49,791 bases of DNA, from positions 1 through 49,791 of the forward strand of contig CAWIMJ010000043.1 in NCBI GenBank assembly GCA_963837175.1, read 5' to 3'. The DNA comes from an uncultured Nitrososphaeraceae archaeon (lineage in GTDB: Archaea > Thermoproteota > Nitrososphaeria > Nitrososphaerales > Nitrososphaeraceae). This document shows positions 13,506 through 27,475 of this stretch, piece by piece; within the stretch, counting starts at the first letter, position 1; the number at the start of each line of letters is the position of its first letter. The notes beneath the pieces were generated by a model. That model did no database searches. It was not told the origin of the DNA and saw only the letters and a list, made by a program, of their open reading frames with translations. The position numbers were made by a program, and so were the translations under genes.

Positions 13506-14282
13506 TTATCCTCTCCTTATTGCATTTATAATTGAGGAGAATTTATCTTCCCAGTTTCCCTCTTTTTCAATCATTGTGCCAATTACAATAGCATCAGCCC
13601 CGGCATTAGCTATTTCCTTTGCGGTTTCTGGGGTACGGATTCCACCACCTACAATAAGTATTCCTTCATAGTTTTTTCTTACTGCTGATACCATTTGGGG
13701 CGAGACATTCTGTATGGCACCAGAGCCAGCTTCGAGATATAAAAACCTCATGCCTAAATACTGAGCAGCCAATGAATACATAATAGCTATTCCGGATTTA
13801 TTGAAAGGAATCGCACGAGCCCTGCCAACGAACCATGCAGTAGTACCCTCGCCAATAATCAAATAACCAGTTGGCAACGGTTCAATATCATATTTTTTGA
13901 CAGCGAGGGCTCCCAAGGCCTGTGCTTCTGTAATAAAGTAAGGATTCTCTGAATTAAGTAGTGAACTGAAGAGAATAGCATCAGCTTTTGGCGCTATTCC
14001 TGTGATATTTCCAGGAAACAATATCACTGGAATTTTGATTTGTGATTTAATACTTGAAACTATCTCGGCCAATTCAAGTTGATCAACTGCTGAGGATCCA
14101 CCAACCAAGATTCCAGAAGCTCCCATTAATTCAGCCTTCTTAGCAATAGAAGAAGCATTTAAAAAGTTTTCTGAGTCTATGAGAGGAAAACATAATGTAC
14201 CATGCTGTTTAAGTTCGTTTACAATATAATTCTCAACAGTTCCTTTCAAGTTGTTTATGGAATGTTTATAGTTATATATCAT
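13506..14282 (-). CDS. Geranylgeranylglyceryl phosphate (GGGP) synthase
   Basis: PLIDSE, ILVGGS, PVILFPG, ADAILFSSLLNS, YLEAGSGA, VGGGIR, AGADAIVIGT; 9 nt upstream of polC. Confidence 0.95.
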   Translation of the reverse strand: MIYNYKHSINNLKGTVENYIVNELKQHGTLCFPLIDSENFLNASSIAKKAELMGASGILVGGSSAVDQLELAEIVSSIKSQIKIPVILFPGNITGIAPKADAILFSSLLNSENPYFITEAQALGALAVKKYDIEPLPTGYLIIGEGTTAWFVGRARAIPFNKSGIAIMYSLAAQYLGMRFLYLEAGSGAIQNVSPQMVSAVRKNYEGILIVGGGIRTPETAKEIANAGADAIVIGTMIEKEGNWEDKFSSIINAIRRG

Positions 14283-16417: not shown

Positions 16418-16758
16418 TAAGATATTTCCTTCTAATATATATAATACTATTCTATAGTCATTTGTTTGAGGCTACTTCGTGATTTGTTGAAGAAACACCA
16501 TGAGCTCAAGCAGATAATAAGGAAAAAACCAGACTTCGTGCAAATATACTAGAGCAAGTAAAAATGTCTTTATATTATAGATTATTTATTAAATATCATA
16601 TATATTACTCGATAATTTGAAATATACTTATATTCGATATATATTGATACTATAACCAATCCAAACATATTGATAACCTATTTATTAATTTAAAACGTAC
16701 CGTTACATATTCGAAAGTTTTAAAACTAGTTTAGCTATACAAATCTGTATAGACTTTT

Positions 16759-17130
16759 ATGAAAGAGGCACAATCCAATTCTTATGATATCTATAGTCAT
16801 ATCATTGAAAATTCTTTATTTACTAATAGACAAATAGATATTATTTGTAAAAAATTAAAGAACACTGATCGGCCAACAAACATGACAGCCGGTGCCTATT
16901 ATAGACAGATAAAGCAATGTAAGAGCAAGGTCAGGAGGCTCCTATATAGTCTAGTATTGCTTAGATCATTAAATGTAGTAGACAAGCAAACACTTTTTGC
17001 AATCGAACGTATTAGCGAACAACTTGCCGTGATGTTTATTAATAAAAGTAGTGATATTTCTCAGTCATATCAAAGCAGTAGCGTGATATTTGCACTTGAT
17101 GAATTAATAAAGAGAATGAATACTTTGTAA
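16759..17130 (+). CDS. Origin-adjacent HTH protein (Tfx/sigma-70 region 4-like)
   Basis: LFTNRQIDII...MTAGAYYRQIKQCKSKVRRLLYSLVLL resembles an HTH followed by a long helix. Confidence 0.7.
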   Translation: MKEAQSNSYDIYSHIIENSLFTNRQIDIICKKLKNTDRPTNMTAGAYYRQIKQCKSKVRRLLYSLVLLRSLNVVDKQTLFAIERISEQLAVMFINKSSDISQSYQSSSVIFALDELIKRMNTL

Positions 17131-17750
17131 AATTATATTACTCTATAAGATTATATCACTGTGGTGACTCAGATATCGTGATATGAGTGATATTTTAAGT
17201 TCTAACCTACATCTTATCATTATATCTATTATATCATATACTGTAGGTATCCTTAGTGTTATATCTTATATTAAGTTGAAAGAATCTATTCGATTCTCAC
17301 TTAACACAGAAGAAAAAACTATTGAGTCAATAGTCTCAGAATATACTCATAGATTAAATAATTATGATAAAGCAATTTCTGAATTACGTGTTAGAATGGA
17401 CACAATAGAATTAAGAGCAATCCAAAATAATACTTTAGATATTTCTCCCCAGATTGAAACAGTTAGTACAAAAGCCTACAAACAAAACACAACAACATCA
17501 CGGCATGAGTCACAGTCAGAACGACCACATAATCACATCTCCCCTGTGAGTGATTTAGTGACCGTCACGCAACCAGCGTCTACCATATCATCAAGACATC
17601 AAGATTCGTATAATGGCACTCTGGATTTCATATTGAAAATGCTGATGGAGAAACCGAGAACCTCGAGAGAAATCCAACATTCCGTTGGAAGAACACGGGA
17701 ACACACATCACGCCTTATGAAGAAACTTTATGATTCCAAATTGGTGATTA
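17029..17750. repeat. Dispersed GTGATAT/GTGAY motif array
   Basis: Exact GTGATAT at 17051, 17083, 17178, 17187 and reverse at 17153; variants at 17029, 17164, 17495(r), 17507(r), 17530(r), 17550, 17558-17568, 17705(r), 17744. Confidence 0.6.
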
Positions 17751-17893
17751 GAGATAGTAACAATAAGCCCTTCAAATATAGTATTACTGACGCAGGTCGT
17801 ATACAGTTGAGGGGACATCATGGGATAAATGGAGAGATTGTACATGTTGCTGACGCTGATTCGACTGACTCTCAATTACCTGCGATGACCTAG
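17183..17893 (+). CDS. Membrane-anchored coiled-coil winged-helix protein
   Basis: N-terminal TM helix (LIIISIISYTVGILSVISYI), coiled coil, S/T/H-rich linker, C-terminal wHTH (RTSREIQHSVGRTREHTSRLMKKLYDSKLVIRD...FKYSITDAG). Confidence 0.8.
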   Translation: MSDILSSNLHLIIISIISYTVGILSVISYIKLKESIRFSLNTEEKTIESIVSEYTHRLNNYDKAISELRVRMDTIELRAIQNNTLDISPQIETVSTKAYKQNTTTSRHESQSERPHNHISPVSDLVTVTQPASTISSRHQDSYNGTLDFILKMLMEKPRTSREIQHSVGRTREHTSRLMKKLYDSKLVIRDSNNKPFKYSITDAGRIQLRGHHGINGEIVHVADADSTDSQLPAMT

Positions 17894-18290
17894 TAATTAT
17901 CTTATATATCCATTCTTTTCCCTTTCGATTTCTGGCCAGTTTACCTCTATCAGAATATCTTGACAAATAAGTCGAGATTATACTCAGCTGAATAGGTTCA
18001 TTATATTCATCTTCATATATCTCAAGAATATCAGATGATGTGAAAGTATTATATGGAAATTTATTTTCAATTATACTCCATATCTTTGAGCCGACAGATA
18101 CCAAATTGTTGTTTTGGCTTTCTGTATCAATATGTCCATTGTTACTCTTTCCACCTAAGTTAATAAGGTCCATTAATTCAAACACTTTCATAATCTTCTC
18201 TTTTGAAAGATTACCCTCTAAAGAAAGATTATACTTGCCTCCTTCGGCATCTTCGAGTTGAATCTTTATCTTCTTTTTGCCTGCGCTCAA
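17784..18290 (-). CDS. Origin-adjacent winged-helix protein, divergent from cdc6
   Basis: N-terminal domain KIKIQLEDAEGGKYNLSLEG; C-terminal wHTH FTSSDILEIYEDEYNEPIQLSIISTYLSRYSDRGKLAR...EWIYKI. Confidence 0.8.
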   Translation of the reverse strand: MSAGKKKIKIQLEDAEGGKYNLSLEGNLSKEKIMKVFELMDLINLGGKSNNGHIDTESQNNNLVSVGSKIWSIIENKFPYNTFTSSDILEIYEDEYNEPIQLSIISTYLSRYSDRGKLARNRKGKEWIYKIITRSSQVIESQSNQRQQHVQSLHLSHDVPSTVYDLRQ

Positions 18291-18461
18291 TCTAGAGTAT
18301 CTTTACCTGTTGACAGGTTAACATGTTAACAACTTAACAGAGGTAGTAATAACTCAGATAACAATTAGCTTAGTTTTTGTTAACTTATATGAGATAGTCA
18401 TAAAGTTATTAACATAAAAAACTTGTTAACTAATTTTTATATCATTGCAAGGAACCTTAAA

Positions 18462-18483
18462 GTTCCAGTCGAAATAAAGGGGT
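18462..18483 (+). promoter_or_regulatory. Origin recognition box ORB1
   Basis: GTTCCAGTCGAAATAAAGGGGT matches the archaeal ORB consensus GTTCCAGTGGAAAC-AAAGGGG. Confidence 0.9.
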
Positions 18484-18522
18484 GTAATTATTCATATTAA
18501 CAGTGTTAACGACAACTATAAC

Positions 18523-18544
18523 ACTCCAGTGGAAATAAGGGGGT
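18523..18544 (+). promoter_or_regulatory. Origin recognition box ORB2
   Basis: ACTCCAGTGGAAATAAGGGGGT. Confidence 0.9.
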
Positions 18545-18620
18545 CATATTCAACAGTTTCAGGATTTTATCAATACTATGTTAACATGGCTGTGAATGTA
18601 ATAATTTCTGTTGCAAGTCG

Positions 18621-18642
18621 CACCCTATTATTTCCTGTCCAG
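18621..18642 (-). promoter_or_regulatory. Inverted degenerate ORB
   Basis: Reverse complement reads CTGGACAGGAAATAATAGGGTG. Confidence 0.5.
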
Positions 18643-18803
18643 AGCTCTCCTCATAGTTTGATAATATTAGATAAATTATTTTATTAATTAATTAATAAAA
18701 TTAGATTTTATGCTTTAAAAGCGATTTGTTAACATTATGTTAACATAATATTAACAAATGTTTCTTCTTATGTTGGATAAGAAAGATAGGGGTGTGGATA
18801 AAA

Positions 18804-20027
18804 ATGAGCGATGACTTTCTTGATAATATCTTTGAAAAGGCTGCTACGGGAAAAACCTTAATGAAAAACCGCCGAACTTTAACAATAGATTATGTTCCTG
18901 AAAAGCTTCCATTTAGAGACGAAGAAACTAAAATAGTCGCACAGGCGCTATCTGTAGTTCTCAAAGGCGCGAGACCATCAAATCTGTTACTTTTTGGTAA
19001 ACCAGGTACTGGGAAAACTGCAGTAGTTAGAAAAGTAATTGAACATCTGGACAAAAAAGCCAAAGAGTTGGAATTGGAAGTTATAGTGCCATTTATAAAT
19101 ACAAAATCTGCAAATACTGCATACAAAGTACTTTATGAAATAGCGGAGTATATGGGAATTAACAAAGAGGAAAAGAAATTACAAGTGCATTTCACAGGAC
19201 TATCAATGGGTGAAGCAACAGATAGAATTCTTGATTTTATTGGAAAGAAAAAACTGAATGTTGTTATTATATTCGACGAAATTGATTCACTAGTAGATAA
19301 AAATGGTGATGATATTTTGTATAATTTTACAAGGGCAAATGAAAGGATCCCCAAAGGAGGATTTATTAGTTTAATTGGAATATCTAACAGCCTCACATTC
19401 AAAGATAAGCTTGATCCTCGTGTCAGAAGTAGTTTGAGTGAGGAGGAGATGGTATTTAATCCATATAAAGTAGAACAATTACAGAAGATTCTGATAGATA
19501 GATCTAGATTAGCATTCAATGATGATGCTGTTTCCAATGCAGCAATAAATCTGTGTGCAGCAATGGCTGGAAAGGAAAATGGTGATGCAAGAAAAGCAAT
19601 TGATCTCTTAAGGGTTTCCGCCGAAATTGCTGAAAGAGAAAAAGCAGATAAGGTAGAAGAAAAGCATATTAGATTAGCCCATGAAAAAATAGAAAAAGAT
19701 ACTAATTATGAGATATTAAAAAATTCTACTACCCATACTAAGATAATAATAATGGCAATAATGAAATCAAAAATTGGCAATACTGGTGAAGTATATGAAA
19801 TTTACTCATCATTATGTAGACATACAGAGCAAGAACCACTTACACAACGCCGTATAACTCAAATAATAAGTGAGCTCGATCAACTCGGTCTTGTAATGAG
19901 TAATATCATGAGCCAAGGTCGATATGGTAGATCGCAGAGAATCAAAATTACTGTCCCAGTTTTGACTATTAAAGAAGCATTGAAAGACGATCCAATTCTT
20001 TCTGCATTATTAATGGCTAATGATTGA
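18804..20027 (+). CDS. cdc6: Orc1/Cdc6 replication initiator
   Basis: Walker A GKPGTGKT, Walker B IIFDEID, LDPRVRSSL, GDARKAIDLLR, C-terminal wHTH with SQGRYGR; ATG at 18804 preferred over GTG at 18792. Confidence 0.98.
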   Translation: MSDDFLDNIFEKAATGKTLMKNRRTLTIDYVPEKLPFRDEETKIVAQALSVVLKGARPSNLLLFGKPGTGKTAVVRKVIEHLDKKAKELELEVIVPFINTKSANTAYKVLYEIAEYMGINKEEKKLQVHFTGLSMGEATDRILDFIGKKKLNVVIIFDEIDSLVDKNGDDILYNFTRANERIPKGGFISLIGISNSLTFKDKLDPRVRSSLSEEEMVFNPYKVEQLQKILIDRSRLAFNDDAVSNAAINLCAAMAGKENGDARKAIDLLRVSAEIAEREKADKVEEKHIRLAHEKIEKDTNYEILKNSTTHTKIIIMAIMKSKIGNTGEVYEIYSSLCRHTEQEPLTQRRITQIISELDQLGLVMSNIMSQGRYGRSQRIKITVPVLTIKEALKDDPILSALLMAND

Positions 20028-23735: not shown

Positions 23736-24083
23736 TATGTTTACAGATTATAAGTAATGAAGCAGCCTTTAAAACCTTAGATAATTAGTTGTTTGCGATA
23801 TGTCTTTATATATACAGGAGCTTTGGCTATTCAGCATATATGTTATAATCCCTTCAGAATGGGTTATTCCACAAATAAGAGTCAGATTCCATTTTGCCAT
23901 AGACGATTCATTTGTTCAAATCAGCGCCAACTCGAATAAATATTCCAAAATTAACTAAATAGAAAATAAAAAATCGTCTACTGTTATACCCTTATTACCA
24001 ACATATTGGGACAAAATCGTCTTACCAATTTACACAATAATTTTGACAATGTTGCCATTATATCTATCTACCACACCGTTTAC

Positions 24084-24923
24084 ATGAGCGAACTAAAGCT
24101 CGAATTTGTCGGCAAACAAGTCAAGGATATGTATGGTACTTTTATAGGAAAAGTAATAGGAATAGTAACAGATATCGATGGTTCAATTGAATCTGTTGGT
24201 GTGGATTGCGGTTCTACTGGTTTAAAACAGTTAGCATATGAACAACTGCTAGTTCAAGGAGAATATGTAATCTACATTCCAAGATGGCGATTGGATGCAC
24301 AAAAACTACTGCGACAGAAAAGTCTTACTCTAATGAGGATAAAAGCACTTAAGGATATAGTTTCAGAAAACGATTCGATGAAAGATGACGCTGAATTAGT
24401 TTACATAAAATATGAAAAACGACTGAATGATCTTGAAAAGGATGAAAAATATGTTCATGAGAAATTGCACGAAAGGTTGAACGAATTGGATAAAGAAAGC
24501 AAAGACATCAAAGCAGTATTGTTTGATGCAAAGCTACAACATAGAAGCAATGAGATAACAGAGGATATTTATCAACAAATCAACATACATACAAATGAAT
24601 TGATGGAACACATTAACCTCGAAAAATCCGAAATTAATAATGTTAAGACAAGACTTACACAGCAAACCTTGGAAAATACTGCCATAACAATTGCATCTGA
24701 TACTGAATCATCTACTATTACCACCAGCCAGGAAATGCCTGCTGCTACTGAATCAGCTTTACAACAACAACAAGAAGAAGGATCTATCGCTAAACAAAGT
24801 GTTGCTCTACCACAAAGAGTAGGCAAGAATGTCACAAATACTGAAGAAAAGTCAATTGAAACGCACGATGATCTAAATAAGGAAACAGAAACAAGTTGGC
24901 TAAATCAGGTGATTCCTAAATAA
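24084..24923 (+). CDS. cdvA: Cell division protein CdvA
   Basis: PRC-barrel N-terminus FVGKQVKDMYGTFIGKVIG, YIPRWR, long coiled coil, disordered tail. Confidence 0.88.
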   Translation: MSELKLEFVGKQVKDMYGTFIGKVIGIVTDIDGSIESVGVDCGSTGLKQLAYEQLLVQGEYVIYIPRWRLDAQKLLRQKSLTLMRIKALKDIVSENDSMKDDAELVYIKYEKRLNDLEKDEKYVHEKLHERLNELDKESKDIKAVLFDAKLQHRSNEITEDIYQQINIHTNELMEHINLEKSEINNVKTRLTQQTLENTAITIASDTESSTITTSQEMPAATESALQQQQEEGSIAKQSVALPQRVGKNVTNTEEKSIETHDDLNKETETSWLNQVIPK

Positions 24924-25505: not shown

Positions 25506-27475
25506 ATGTCCGATCCGGAATTCGATAAGTTATCAAAAATATATGAAGAAAGCGAAAAAATCAAAGTAAACTTGGAAGGGAAAAAACTTTATAAAATAAG
25601 AAAGCAAGCATCGGAAAGTTCAGAAGAATTTTGGGCAGAGCAAGCAAAATATCTGAATTGGTTCAAAGAATGGGATAAAGTACTCGATTGGAATCCTCCA
25701 TTTGCAAAATGGTTTATTGGTGGCAAGCTAAATGCGTCTGTCAATTGTCTCGATAGACATATTGATTCTGATGCAAAAAACAAGGTAGCCATAATCTGGG
25801 AAGGTGAAAATGGCGAAACCAATTCATTTACCTACTATCAATTATACCGTTCTGTTAATAAATTCGCTAGCGTTCTGAAAAATCTTGGTGTGAAAAAAGG
25901 TGATCCGATCACAATTTATCTACCTATGATTCCTCAGCTTCCGATTGCAATGCTAGCAAGTTCGAGAGTTGGCGCAATTCATACTGTTGTTTTCTCTGGA
26001 TTTAGCTCTAAATCATTAGCTGATAGGGTAAATGACTCGAAATCAAAAGTTATAATAACTGCTGATGGTAGCTGACAGAAGAGGAAAGCTTGTCCCTCTG
26101 AAAAGAGTTGTAGATGATGCTATTTCTTCTATCCCTTCAGCAGAACATGTTATTGTAGTGAAGAGAGCATCAAATGATATTCAGATGGGGCCAAAAGATT
26201 TATGGTGGCATGACCTAATTGAAAATGCGCCATCATATTGTGAGCCAGAAATTCTAGACAGTATGCATCCTTTGTATATTCTATATACTTCCGGAACAAC
26301 AGGAAAGCCAAAAGGAGTACTGCATAGTACCTGGCGGCTATCTTACATATTTGTATGCAACAGCTAAATGGGTTTTCGATTTTAGAAAGGAAGACATTTT
26401 CTTTTGTACTGCAGATATAGGATGGGTGACGGGACACAGTTACATTGTTTATGCACCACTGCTTCATGGTGTTACCGAAATAATGTATGAAGGGACTCCT
26501 GATTATCCAAAACCTGACAGATATTGGGCCATAGTGGAAAAACAGGGTGCATCCATTCTATATACCACTCCTACTGCTCTTAGAATGTATATGAAATTTG
26601 GAAATACTATTCCTAATTCATTTGATCTGTCTTCGCTTCGTCTATTGGGTACTGTAGGCGAGCCGATTAATCCGGAGGTTTGGATGTGGTATTTTAAAAC
26701 TATTGGAAAGGAAAGTTGTCCCATTGTTGATACATGGTGGCAGACTGAAACAGGTGGCATTATGATAGGTATGTGTACCGGTATCGACTCTGTTCCCATG
26801 AAACCTGGTTCAGGCACCTTTCCTGTACCTGGTATAGATGCAGCTGTCGTCGATGAAAATGGAAGACAAGTAGATCCCGACAGAAAAGGATATCTAATAA
26901 TTAGAAAGCCGTGGCCTGGAATGTTAATGACACTATGGGAAGATGACGAAAAATACCGCAAAACTTACTGGAGAAAATTTGAAAATGAAAATGTATACTA
27001 TGCTGGTGATTATGCACTTTCTGATGCTGACGGCTATCTTTGGCTTCTAGGTAGATCCGATGATGTACTTAAAGTAGCTGGACATAGGCTTGGTACAATG
27101 GAGTTAGAAAGCGCATTTGTATCATACAAAGCGATTGCGGAAGCTGCAGTAACAAGTAGGCCAGATCAGAAAAAAGGAGAATCAATAATTGCGTTTTTGG
27201 TGCTGAGGACAGAATTTTTACCATCTGATCAACTGCGTGTTGAGCTTATTGATCACATTCGAAATTCAGTGGGACCAATTGCAACACCTGAAGAGATTTA
27301 TTTTGTTAATAAACTTCCCAAAACTCGAAGTGGAAAAATAATGCGGAGATTGCTTAAATCGATAGCTAGTGGAGCAGTAGTAGCAACTGGGGATGCTACC
27401 ACACTTGAAGATGAGGCATCGTTAGAAGAAATAAGGCAAGCCTATAACGATTTACATAAAGTAGTTGACCTCTAA
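25506..27475 (+). CDS. acs: Acetyl-CoA synthetase (AMP-forming); two 1-nt insertions (about 26074 and 26331)
   Basis: [69 protein letters not shown], spread over three consecutive ORFs. Confidence 0.93.

Follow-up and report, generated by a model that had tools for sequence, protein, structure and literature searches.

In the genome of an uncultured Nitrososphaeraceae archaeon, an array of the word GTGAT spans the end of one gene (P1), a spacer, and the body of the next gene (P2). The array is real and far beyond chance, and selection on the word acts at the nucleotide level. The words are predicted, with a probability of roughly 0.6, to be double-stranded DNA sites for a locally encoded helix-turn-helix (HTH) protein, most likely the winged HTH (wHTH) of P2, which would repress P2 through them. 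P1, P2, and a third HTH gene, P3, lie beside a probable ORB-type origin and orc1/cdc6 in an order that is kept class-wide. No description of the GTGAT array was found in the literature searched. Features of the locus are given below by position in the window, that is, the whole analyzed stretch of 49,791 nucleotides.

16735 to 16752, no strand: palindrome CTATACA-N4-TGTATAG, 6 nt before the P1 start codon, conserved and separate from the GTGAT word.
16759 to 17130, plus strand: P1, 123 aa, five-helix protein (ORF; AlphaFold2 pLDDT 84.7).
17029 to 17089, plus strand: upstream part of cluster 1, three words in the last 34 codons of P1.
17029, plus strand: word GTGAT, coding Val91-Met of P1.
17051, plus strand: word GTGATAT, coding Ser98-Asp-Ile of P1.
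17083, plus strand: word GTGATAT, coding Val109-Ile of P1.
17143 to 17159, no strand: TATA-like box CTATAAG...TTATAT that continues into the inverted word ATATCAC (17153-17159, a minus-strand GTGATAT).
17178 to 17193, plus strand: word pair that flanks the P2 start codon and overlaps it, GTGATATG (17178-17185) and GTGATAT (17187-17193, codons 2-4).
17183 to 17893, plus strand: P2, 236 aa, predicted membrane-anchored wHTH protein (AlphaFold2 and hydropathy).
17207 to 17272, plus strand: hydrophobic N-terminal helix of P2 (residues 9-30), then one long helix to residue 85.
17438 to 17605, plus strand: disordered linker of P2 (residues 86-141; AlphaFold2 pLDDT < 50).
17497 to 17568, no strand: cluster 2, six words coding linker residues 105-129 (ATCAC 17497, GTCAC 17509, ATCAC 17532, GTGAT 17550, GTGAC 17558, GTCAC 17564).
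17606 to 17821, plus strand: winged helix of P2 (residues 142-213; AlphaFold2 pLDDT > 90), then a disordered tail.
17784 to 18290, minus strand: P3, 168 aa, wHTH protein weakly similar to the CopY/BlaI type, encoded by the module's third HTH gene.
18291 to 18791, no strand: probable chromosomal replication origin (ORB-type boxes, an AT-rich stretch, and GTTAACA repeats).
18462 to 18486 and 18524 to 18547, no strand: ORB-type boxes, CCAGTGGAAA then a G-string; a third G-string copy lies at 18781-18795.
18792 to 20027, plus strand: orc1/cdc6 initiator gene (Pfam Cdc6_lid 4.5e-23, Cdc6_C 7.8e-21).

Five exact copies of GTGATAT, at 17051(+), 17083(+), 17153(-), 17178(+), and 17187(+), reach from the 3' end of the ORF at 16759-17130 through the 52-nt spacer and over the ATG at 17183; the preliminary description had reported five copies over this gene end, spacer, and next start, and all five were located. 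At the genome-wide rate (775 copies in 3,810,681 bases, 0.20 per kb), approximately 0.03 copies are expected in 143 bp, in line with the prior estimate of well under 0.1, and 17051-17193 is the sole place in the 3.81-Mb genome where 4 or 5 copies fall inside 150 bp. The window as a whole contains 19 copies versus 10.9 ± 3.1 in shuffles, and the inverted repeat ATATCAC-N18-GTGATAT (7-nt arms) is unique in the genome. For GTGAY/RTCAC, 15 words were found in 17029-17748, and a genome-wide density scan, which had been proposed as a check, returned the 720-bp interval at 17029 as the genome maximum (15 as compared to a genome mean of 1.7, sd 1.4), equalled by no other interval. The 75-bp interval at 17491, with 6 words, is the joint genome maximum, tied with C2:31571. 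The other top-density intervals (C2 at 31.5 kb and C17 at 12.3 kb) were rejected as related loci, since C2:31571 and C17:12331 are plain tandem coding repeats, and the three-copy GTGATAT clusters on C8 and C45 were rejected as kin because they belong to a different repeat, CCGGTGATATCACCGG.

At least four GTGAT/ATCAC words within 120 bp occur at 16 places in the genome; as far as inspected, these are tandem repeats, the C8/C45 repeat, rRNA ends, and isolated cases. A direct-triple pattern gave 0-17 matches per genome in five complete relatives, about equal to the reversed control, with the P2 locus among the matches in three of the five. No wider regulon of the word was found in the genome scan, the promoters of this genome, or the five complete relatives. 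No other promoter in the genome has such an array, which fits a dedicated autoregulator and gives no independent target for defining the site. Word density is flat (1.4-2.1 per kb) around 1,593 ORF starts, and GTGAT as a general promoter or initiator element was rejected on this basis. A scan for bacterial promoters and terminators was uninformative, the host being an archaeon.

In an unbiased k-mer scan of 30 loci (one per genus), ATCAC/GTGAT was the most enriched 5-mer and ranked first in both clusters, with 169 occurrences versus 21 expected around the P2 start (30 of 30 loci) and 94 versus 21 expected in the linker (27 of 30 loci). The comparison of orthologues suggested in the preliminary description thus shows the word kept while the linkers, which are unalignable across genera, have diverged. 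Background density is ∼1-3 words per kb in each of three tiers (genus, family, and other families); density peaks at -50..-1 of the P2 start (40, 34, and 42 per kb, respectively) and again at +250..+400 (up to 26, 29, and 10-15 per kb). Among 74 further public loci, at least three words lie in -200..+50 in 73 (median 7) and at least two in +250..+400 in 53. Both clusters are present at equivalent places in relatives throughout the order. Cluster 1 is also present in other orders of the class (18 loci; 14.9 per kb at -150..+50 versus 2.5 per kb background), and the linker cluster is mostly absent there. Whether sites are taken from cluster 1, from cluster 2, or at the class level, their weak flanks show one preference, with T ahead of the word and, behind it, any base but C followed by T (consensus about T-GTGAT-R-T), which fits one reader for all sites. 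Word spacings group at 9-12, 22-23, 32, 54, and 63 nt, near multiples of the helical turn, a pattern that is only suggestive, as the loci are related. The word is invariant across the class and thus shows no protein-site covariation.

When each peptide was held fixed and its codons resampled 2000 times, 25.3 ± 4.3 words were obtained in the linker versus 94 observed (z = 16) and 19.7 ± 3.7 in the P1 tail versus 71 observed (z = 13.9); the observed counts, 3.6-3.7 times the synonymous expectation, were reached by 0 of 2000 resamples in either region. In a codon alignment of 21 loci, Val91 of P1 is GTG in 14 of 14 and Val109 in 18 of 19 (32 of 33 cases for the two sites), and Ile110 is ATA in 13 of 14. 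The GTG share of Val codons in this genome is 11.5%, and a control residue, Val188 in P2, is GTG in 6 of 22. One locus has replaced Ser with Gly in P1 (GGT GAT) and retained the word. All possible reading frames of the word are in use, on both strands (nnA-TCA-Cnn 51, nAT-CAC 21, ATC-ACn 16, nGT-GAT 18, GTG-ATn 7), and third-codon identity within the genus is 0.94 in words versus 0.79 outside. Synonymous resampling, GTG bias, and all-frame reading bear out the preliminary proposal that the DNA motif, rather than the peptide, is selected. Words are also kept in the noncoding P1-P2 spacer.

At cluster 1, GTGAT lies immediately before or around the P2 start codon in most of 36 loci, and a block of (T)AAATCAC(G/T)G followed 14-18 nt on by GTGAT(AT)G is found again in other genera. 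Orientations of word pairs within the cluster are mixed (++ 69, +- 28, -+ 27, -- 18), and the spacing of inverted pairs ranges from 14 to 20 nt. From its position, CTATAAG...TTATAT within 17143-17159 is the putative P2 TATA box. Contigs from four soil metatranscriptome runs cover P2 and P3 and leave P1 uncovered, a gap that carries no information; one contig spans 17178-17698 and ends exactly at 17178, a weak hint that the P2 transcript starts there. Cluster 2, previously described as a second cluster in the P2 linker (17495-17568), resolves into six words at 17497-17568, including GTGAC-C-GTCAC at 17558-17568, and codes residues inside the segment (86-141) left disordered by the AlphaFold2 model. 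Within the genus, its words at 17497 and 17532 do not vary, those at 17509 and 17564 preserve TCAC, and those at 17550 and 17558 are not kept; the latter two and 17164 are the only such cases among the 15 words of the array, the rest being invariant or nearly so. The linker position is word-enriched also in other genera and families, with a coding-strand orientation of ATCAC 88 versus 25.

The three proteins encoded at the locus are HTH candidates. Residues 18-65 of P1 resemble an HTH of the LuxR or sigma-70 region-4 type at middling Z-scores (EsrB, Z 7.9; DesR, Z 6.8, rmsd 1.4 Å over 48 residues; archaeal factor 8hno, Z 6.5, rmsd 1.1 Å); a Foldseek search with P1 gave no match. Val91 and Val109 are conserved residues of P1, and the words in its gene fall in an amphipathic C-terminal helix. 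All 20 family loci have P1 ahead of P2. In other orders, an HMM recovered P1, which BLAST had missed, from 16 of 18 loci: 12 carry it immediately ahead of P2 in the P2 orientation, two (L043, L047) carry it farther upstream, at ∼270-500 nt from the P2 start, and two (L042, L054) carry it on the other strand; an argument that excluded P1 as binder by its absence from other orders was dropped for this reason. P2 is single-copy in the genome, and its modeled wHTH (H142-156, H161-168, H172-184, E188-191, E198-201) consists of three helices followed by a beta-hairpin wing, the winged helix-turn-helix fold. Many MarR/ArsR-type chains, several solved with DNA, were matched by Foldseek. Pfam matches fell solely below gathering scores (HVO_A0261_N, 24.5 bits with cut-off 35; TrmB, 17.9 bits with cut-off 25.6), and no MarR model (MarR or MarR_2) was listed, so that P2 is not assigned to the MarR/TrmB family. 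An N-terminal 19-residue window with Kyte-Doolittle hydropathy of at least 1.6 is present in 27 of 28 P2 orthologues, with several K/R within ten residues after the hydrophobic helix in most of those listed, and throughout the class both the word and the recognition-helix motif (S/T)REH..R..K are retained. With the N-terminal hydrophobic helix and the wHTH model both holding, the earlier designation of P2 as a membrane-anchored wHTH protein stands as a prediction. P3 is convergent with P2, with a 110-nt overlap at the P2 3' end. No PDB sequence-level relatives were found for P1, P2, or P3, and none of the three matched a ParB family (Pfam at E <= 0.1; NCBIfam).

The ORF neighborhood contains replication and division genes (both PolD subunits, orc1/cdc6, and CdvA). 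The boxes at 18291-18791 were classed as ORB-type by the ORB consensus, which together with orc1/cdc6 adjacency points to this spacer as a probable replication origin; GC skew over the 50-kb window was not decisive. Both clusters (17029-17568) lie 0.9-1.8 kb from the ORB boxes (18462-18795). Every order-level locus whose contig extends far enough shows the arrangement P2-P3-[ORB spacer]-orc1, CCAGTGGA / CAGTGGAA occurs in 16 of 17 P3-orc1 spacers, and GTTAACA occurs in 9 of 17; P2, P3, and orc1 are found together in 15 of 18 loci from other orders. CTATACA is enriched around the P1 start (27 versus 0.16 expected in 78 nt, from 70 nt upstream to 8 nt into P1; 19 of 21 loci). No ParA/SegA-type ATPase was seen beside the module among the 19 window ORFs scanned with Pfam.

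These features are most consistent with a protein-binding, autoregulatory array, in which one of the three HTH proteins of the locus would bind GTGAT words on double-stranded DNA; the binder is most likely the winged helix of P2 itself. The N-terminal helix would tether P2 to the membrane, with the wHTH carried on a flexible linker of ∼55 residues that could let single wHTH domains occupy short sites of monomer size, with the spacing and direction of the sites free to vary, as they do in the array. The two promoter-proximal words bracket the likely core promoter, one abutting the TATA-like box and the other covering the putative transcript start and the start codon, and their occupancy would repress P2, constituting negative autoregulation. 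The three words at the P1 3' end and, within the order, the linker cluster may build a larger cooperative complex. Protein binding, the identity of the binder, and repression by binding are each deduced from sequence and modeled structure. P1 and P3 are co-conserved with the word as widely as P2, and co-occurrence does not single out the binder.

The array may also tie the origin region to the membrane. In this extension of the binding-array explanation, several membrane-anchored P2 molecules would bind both clusters and position or segregate the origin, as an anchor or centromere-like site, with autoregulation as a by-product, as in ParB/parS and ParR/parC. We consider this possible, though doubtful. 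It draws on the conserved order P2-P3-[ORB spacer]-orc1 with ORB words in nearly all spacers (16 of 17), the near-universal hydrophobic helix of P2 orthologues (27 of 28), the nearby replication and division genes, and the presence of 12 or more words in two clusters, where one or two suffice for a simple repressor; AspA, a centromere binder from an archaeal plasmid, is another match of the P2 wHTH model (TMt 0.70-0.73), a generic wHTH likeness, and RicO offers a bacterial precedent (bioRxiv 10.64898/2026.03.06.710092). However, no ParA/SegA-type ATPase accompanies the module among the 19 window ORFs scanned, the linker cluster is mostly missing outside the order, the sites form a single small locus rather than dispersed origin-proximal sites, and the position beside the origin might be no more than an ancient, stable arrangement of genes. 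A broader proposal, that P1-P2-P3 and the GTGAT array form an origin-organizing module common to the class Nitrososphaeria, appears unlikely: self-encoded P2, synthesized at the membrane from its gene beside oriC, would bind the array in its own promoter and its own linker-coding DNA and fasten the origin to the membrane, with P1 and P3 reading the CTATACA palindrome and the GTTAACA repeats.

An element acting at the RNA level, with GUGAU near the P2 start pairing with AUCAC (upstream, at 17155, or in the linker) and masking the start codon, or bound by an RNA-binding protein, is quite improbable. Synonymous-site conservation is equally compatible with RNA function, and on the coding strand GUGAU predominates in cluster 1 and AUCAC in cluster 2. 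The linker ATCAC on the mRNA is complementary to the cluster 1 GUGAU copies, which counts against the DNA-site reading. When -170..+430 was folded for minimum free energy, a third to a half of the GUGAU nucleotides (5-25 of 15-45) were paired to AUCAC words, and the fold z-score is below -2.5 in 5 of 15 loci. However, these z-scores are inconsistent (-3.6 to +0.9) and derive from just 12 mononucleotide shuffles each, which flatters structure, and no Rfam family matched. Coding offers an explanation for the strand bias in the linker: ATCAC is open in all three frames and encodes Ser, His, or Ile-Thr, depending on the frame, but GTGAT introduces a TGA stop in one of its frames and specifies Val-Ile/Met in a second. 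Cluster 1 has words in both orientations; L023, L032, and L035 have GUGAU at the start without AUCAC in the +210..+420 linker stretch, and other-order loci keep cluster 1, mostly without the linker cluster. If the P2 transcript starts near 17178, for which the indication is weak, the word at the TATA-like box lies upstream of the transcript. The words also lie near the ORB-bearing spacer and orc1/cdc6, and could in principle extend the replication origin, being bound by Orc1/Cdc6 or another replication factor and not by P1, P2, or P3. This we judge very improbable, given that the ORB boxes here (CCAGTGGAAA plus a G-string) are unlike GTGAT and the words lack this core, that no GTGAT word was seen by eye in the ORB spacer at 18291-18791, and that density has dropped to background by about +650..+700 with no later rise up to +1400 and beyond, a range comprising most of the spacer; the words follow the promoter and body of P2 rather than the AT-rich region of unwinding. 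A lack of function, with the array arising by chance or from peptide conservation or a biased linker composition, is scarcely credible: S, H, Q, and T abound in the linker, which has a loosely kept S-Q-H-x-S-Q stretch within the family, and Val91 and Val109 are conserved, but the synonymous excess, the rare GTG codon in nearly all cases at these sites, the retained spacer words, and the genome-maximum density contradict it.

Under the preferred reading of the array as binding sites, it provides a clean natural example of dual coding, in which predicted binding sites are written into a reading frame where the protein tolerates them (a disordered linker and an amphipathic C-terminal helix) and are visible as extreme synonymous-codon bias. 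If the array is just an autoregulatory operator, it would define the recognition word of a class-wide orphan regulator and mark an origin-adjacent gene set. If P2 does act as an anchor, it would represent a physical origin-membrane attachment, long postulated for prokaryotes, in archaea dividing with the Cdv system. Control of the ordered cell cycle in TACK archaea is described as unclear, with known regulators explaining only a small share of cell-cycle-specific genes, in a published review (PMC7617429), and no account of chromosome positioning or segregation in ammonia-oxidizing archaea was found in the passages of the literature consulted. The locus, with three HTH proteins (one predicted to be membrane-anchored) and three conserved DNA elements at the origin, is a concrete, class-wide conserved, and testable candidate.

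Among known systems, the best structural matches of the P2 wHTH are the archaeal MarR/ArsR-type autorepressors ST1710, BldR, and TA0346 (Foldseek E 5e-4 to 2e-3). Operators of MarR/ArsR-type repressors commonly overlap the promoter of their own gene. These three are soluble dimers with one palindromic operator and a fixed dimer interface, whereas P2 lacks the MarR dimerization helices and has a predicted membrane helix, a flexible linker, and an array of monomer-sized words. ToxR and CadC are bitopic, single-pass membrane regulators with a cytoplasmic winged-helix DNA-binding domain, an arrangement that P2 is predicted to share. In ToxR and CadC, the wHTH is N-terminal and of the OmpR type, and a periplasmic sensor domain is present; in contrast, P2 would place ∼8 residues outside the membrane, has the reverse domain order, and gave no OmpR-type domain match in Pfam.

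DNA-membrane bridging proteins include Noc and RacA of Bacillus subtilis. No homology of P2 to bridging proteins of this kind (RicO, Noc, RacA) was detected. RicO of Staphylococcus aureus bridges origin-proximal motifs and the membrane by an N-terminal DNA-binding domain and a C-terminal amphipathic helix (bioRxiv 10.64898/2026.03.06.710092). P2 differs in its N-terminal hydrophobic helix, C-terminal wHTH, and archaeal host. Like the iteron centromeres, whose binders are small dimeric DNA-binding proteins (ParR-parC; AspA of archaeal plasmid pNOB8, PDB 4rs8 and 5k5q), the P2 locus has short repeats at the promoter of the presumed binder's operon, and the P2 wHTH model aligns with AspA at a generic 12-14% identity. 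In ParR-parC of plasmid R1, the short-repeat arrays at the promoter of the binder's operon are both operator and centromere. P2 instead is chromosomal, membrane-anchored by prediction, and beside oriC, and its words are irregular in spacing and orientation, with a second cluster inside the P2 coding sequence. In the chromosomal ParB-parS system of bacteria, parS, a 16-bp palindrome, lies near oriC and in some cases inside par/spo0J coding sequence. The present word is instead a 5-8 bp asymmetric element in arrays, P1, P2, and P3 lack a ParB-like domain, a partner ATPase was not seen among the 19 window ORFs, and P2 has a predicted membrane anchor, whereas ParB has none. The likeness to parS is an analogy, for a locus that adjoins the origin: in both, origin-proximal sites lie over coding sequence that includes the presumed binder's own gene, an arrangement that would serve autoregulation and chromosome handling.

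The GTGAT word (GTGAT/ATCAC, either strand) is concentrated in a module of three neighboring HTH-protein genes, P1, P2 (a membrane-anchored winged HTH [wHTH] protein), and P3, which adjoins orc1/cdc6 in an assembly of 3.81 Mb and 34% G+C, of which the window is contig C43. The closest public homologues of P2 are labeled Nitrososphaeraceae. GGGP synthase and the PolD large subunit are encoded upstream of P1–P2, and the main features are as follows.

16735–16752, palindrome CTATACA-N4-TGTATAG, 6 nt 5' of the P1 start codon
16759–17130, same strand as P2, P1 (123 aa)
17183–17893, same strand as P1, P2 (236 aa)
17784–18290, minus strand, P3 (168 aa), convergent with P2
18291–18791, P3–orc1 spacer (501 nt), preceding orc1/cdc6
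18309–18338, 18379, 18409, 18425, 18497–18510, 18581, and 18729–18755, at least 10 copies of GTTAAC(A)/ATTAACA, several being overlapping palindromes
18792–20027, orc1/cdc6, followed by the PolD small subunit gene
24006–24923, CdvA

The 3' ends of P2 and P3 share 110 nt (17784–17893), and the distal P3 frame may be unconserved read-through, as tblastn matches to P3 often end near residue 130 to 150. The ∼850 nt 5' of P1 (15884–16735) are AT-rich and hold short ORFs only (none of ≥110 aa); since GGGP synthase lies far nearer P1 in Nitrososphaera relatives, this stretch may be inserted or decayed sequence in this genus. An acetyl-CoA synthetase-like gene is split over two ORFs with a gap of ∼275 nt, 25506–26075 (ACAS_N and the beginning of the AMP-binding domain) and 26351–27475 (AMP-binding positions 200–378 and the C-terminal domain), possibly reflecting a frameshift, pseudogene, or assembly error.

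The preliminary description had counted five exact copies of the longer form GTGATAT, and these are present at 17051, 17083, 17153 (minus strand), 17178, and 17187. GTGATAT occurs 775 times genome-wide (0.20 per kb), and a whole-genome scan found four or five copies within 150 bp at this locus only. The looser form GTGAY/RTCAC reaches its genome maximum here, with 15 copies in a 720-bp window starting at 17029 (genome mean, 1.7). In the second cluster, also noted previously, a 75-bp window at 17491 contains six copies, a number matched only by one tandem coding repeat. Words in the P1 3' end, the P1–P2 spacer, and the P2 start are termed cluster 1, and those in DNA coding for the P2 linker cluster 2. 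Three of the 15 words (17164, 17550, and 17558) are not retained among members of the genus either and might be incidental. The genome's only other three-copy GTGATAT clusters stem from a dispersed repeat of CCGGTGATATCACCGG and CCGGGGATAT units on other contigs (C8:88515–88605, C45:793–913, C45:10169–10270, and C45:11093–11240), which looks unrelated to the P2 array. Within the GGGP synthase gene (13506–14282, minus strand), GTGATAT-N12-ATATCAC-N14-GTGAT falls within 45 nt (14002–14046). These words come from a conserved peptide, VILFPGN(I/V)T (93 loci), whose Val is GTG in 56/82, mostly closely related Nitrososphaera genomes in which the gene lies ∼0.8 kb upstream of P2; they could belong to the P2 array as an additional site or have arisen by chance.

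Word density relative to the P2 start showed the same two peaks in all three sets of loci (genus, 7; other genera of the family, 17; other families, 12), over a background of 1 to 3 per kb. Cluster 1 extends from −200 to +50 and peaks at −50 to −1 (40, 34, and 42 per kb, respectively), while cluster 2 at +250 to +400 reaches up to 26, up to 29, and 10 to 15 per kb. Because related genomes are non-independent samples, one locus per genus was used and reliance was placed on synonymous sites. An unbiased k-mer scan of 30 such loci ranked ATCAC/GTGAT top in both regions (cluster 1, 169 observed versus 21 expected, 30/30 loci; cluster 2, 94 versus 21, 27/30 loci). Among 74 further public loci (six same-genus loci dropped; mutually related and partially overlapping with genomes already sampled), 73 have at least three cluster 1 words (median 7) and 53 at least two in cluster 2. 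In 18 loci from other orders, cluster 1 stands at 14.9 versus 2.5 per kb, with at least one word in 18/18 loci and at least two in 16/18; cluster 2 is mostly missing. P2 start codons in distant loci are estimates, good to about 10 to 30 nt. Flanking preferences are alike everywhere, with T in front of the word, C hardly ever in the first position behind it, and T in the second.

The genes are conserved as well. P2 is present in 38/41 sampled relatives and, by profile search, in 97/121 genomes of the class. P1 lies upstream of P2 in 20/20 family loci, and P2, P3, and orc1 occur together in all order-level loci with sufficient contig reach and in 15/18 from other orders. An HMM detected P1 in 16 of those 18, in 14 cases upstream of P2 and in the same orientation (ending ≤∼80 nt from the P2 start in 12), and in two on the opposite strand. 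In two complete genomes, each assembled as a single contig, the locus occupies the extreme end.

Codon choice argues that the DNA word, rather than the peptide, is retained. Three aligned word sites in P1 encode Val-Met/Ile (GTG ATR), Ser-Asp (AGT GAT), and Val-Ile (GTG ATA). Val91 is GTG in 14/14 loci, Val109 is GTG in 18/19, and Ile110 is ATA in 13/14, whereas other conserved Leu, Gly, Ala, Arg, and Thr columns of P1 vary freely in codon; GTG makes up 11.5% of the genome's Val codons, and a conserved Val in the P2 winged helix, taken as control, is GTG in only 6/22. One genus replaces Ser by Gly (GGT GAT) with the word retained, and another carries ATCAC at the third P1 site. In the comparison that the preliminary description proposed, linker peptides are unalignable across genera while the word is still dense there, and it is read in varying frames and strands, as S-Q/S-H, x-H, I-T, S/G-D, or V-I/M. 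When each peptide was held fixed and synonymous codons were drawn from the locus's own usage (2000 resamples), the linker was expected to hold 25.3 ± 4.3 words against 94 observed (z 16) and the P1 tail 19.7 ± 3.7 against 71 (z 13.9), with no resample reaching either observed count. Third-codon identity within the genus is 0.94 inside words versus 0.79 outside.

Across genera, the P1–P2 spacer contains a TATA-like box that continues directly into (T)AAATCAC(G/T)G, followed 14 to 18 nt later by a GTGAT that abuts or overlaps the P2 start codon as GTGATATG or GTGATG. In one genus this pair is a perfect palindrome of 24 nt; here it has 7-nt arms, ATATCAC-N18-GTGATAT, a combination occurring once in the genome. 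Archaeal TATA boxes usually lie about 26 nt upstream of the transcript start; on that spacing, the first of the two words would border the TATA box, and the second would border the site where transcription begins. A 521-nt soil metatranscriptome contig (run X1) spans 17178–17698 with three differences and ends exactly at the G of GTGATATG at 17178, which is 5 nt upstream of the P2 initiation codon. This agrees with a near-leaderless P2 transcript, but contig ends do not map 5' ends, and it hints at such a transcript only weakly. Gene starts as a whole show no enrichment of the word.

The words are most likely protein-binding sites on duplex DNA. Their size (5–8 bp), mixed orientation, and irregular spacing, with distances clustering near 10, 21 to 23, 32, 54, and 63 nt, fit monomeric HTH domains, and a rigid dimer less so. 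An effect at the RNA level, in which mRNA GUGAU (mostly cluster 1) pairs with AUCAC (mostly cluster 2), is improbable. Folds of −170 to +430 in 15 loci do pair a third to half of GUGAU nucleotides with AUCAC words, but fold z-scores range from −3.6 to +0.9, with only 12 mononucleotide shuffles each, and the strand bias is explicable by coding, GTGAT giving TGA in one frame and hydrophobic residues in another. Moreover, orientations are mixed within cluster 1, and three order-level loci and most other-order loci keep cluster 1 while their linker stretch lacks any AUCAC word.

For binding to duplex DNA, we infer P2 to be the protein concerned, although P1 and P3 are co-conserved with the word to an equal degree. 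A 19-residue N-terminal window with Kyte-Doolittle hydropathy of at least 1.6 is found in 27/28 P2 orthologues, with several K/R within 10 residues after the hydrophobic segment in most of the orthologues displayed. The AlphaFold2 model has a long helix to residue 85, disorder over 86 to 141, a winged helix at 142 to 213 (pLDDT > 90), and a disordered tail. The modeled winged helix is similar to DNA-binding domains of the MarR/ArsR type, as well as to AspA, the centromere binder of pNOB8; it falls below every Pfam and NCBIfam threshold, and public copies are annotated as hypothetical or “winged helix-turn-helix domain-containing”. Its putative recognition helix, (S/T)REH..R..K, is conserved class-wide along with the word. 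P2 would supply domains suited to such sites, since its winged helices are joined by long, flexible linkers to a membrane anchor. Sites over the TATA-like box and start predict autorepression, and the extra sites a larger complex. P1 is modeled as five helices (pLDDT 84.7), of which residues 18 to 65 match LuxR/sigma-70 region-4 HTHs with middling scores (Z 6.5–7.9, rmsd 1.1–3.3 Å); a Foldseek search with P1 gave no match. P3 is weakly similar to CopY/BlaI-type wHTH proteins.

The three HTH proteins are accompanied by three cis-elements. Besides the GTGAT words, the equally conserved CTATACA-N4-TGTATAG palindrome, retained across families in 19 to 21 of 21 loci and present in one locus from another order, is likely a separate operator. 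GTTAACA repeats fill the P3–orc1 spacer, are enriched in 9/17 orthologous spacers, and may be recognized by a further factor, perhaps P3 or P1. The same spacer holds two boxes of the origin recognition box (ORB) type, CCAGTGGAAA followed by a G-string, at 18462–18486 and 18524–18547, a combination which we take to be the classical archaeal ORB, together with a third G-string copy (18781–18795) and an AT-rich stretch (around 18660–18720). ORB-type words recur in 16/17 orthologous spacers; 18291–18791 is thus a probable chromosomal replication origin, with the GTGAT array 0.9 to 1.8 kb away. As P2 carries a membrane anchor and the module stays beside the origin throughout the class, an extension of this reading that deserves serious consideration is that P2 may also fix origin-proximal DNA to the membrane.

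The literature searched gave no description of P2, of the word, or of a set of HTH genes beside the origin in these archaea; Pelve et al. 2013, who reportedly located the one replication origin of Nitrosopumilus maritimus, might cover origin-flanking repeats. P2, the word, and the module are unmentioned in the accessible portions of reviews on archaeal origins (PMC4010727, PMC5333045) and the archaeal cell cycle (PMC7617429). To our knowledge, neither the combination nor its conservation throughout this archaeal class has been described. The principles are known ones: binding sites written over coding sequence, operator arrays that also act as centromeres, and DNA–membrane bridging near the origin, for which RicO of S. 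aureus, from the accessible part of its report, provides a bacterial precedent (bioRxiv 10.64898/2026.03.06.710092).
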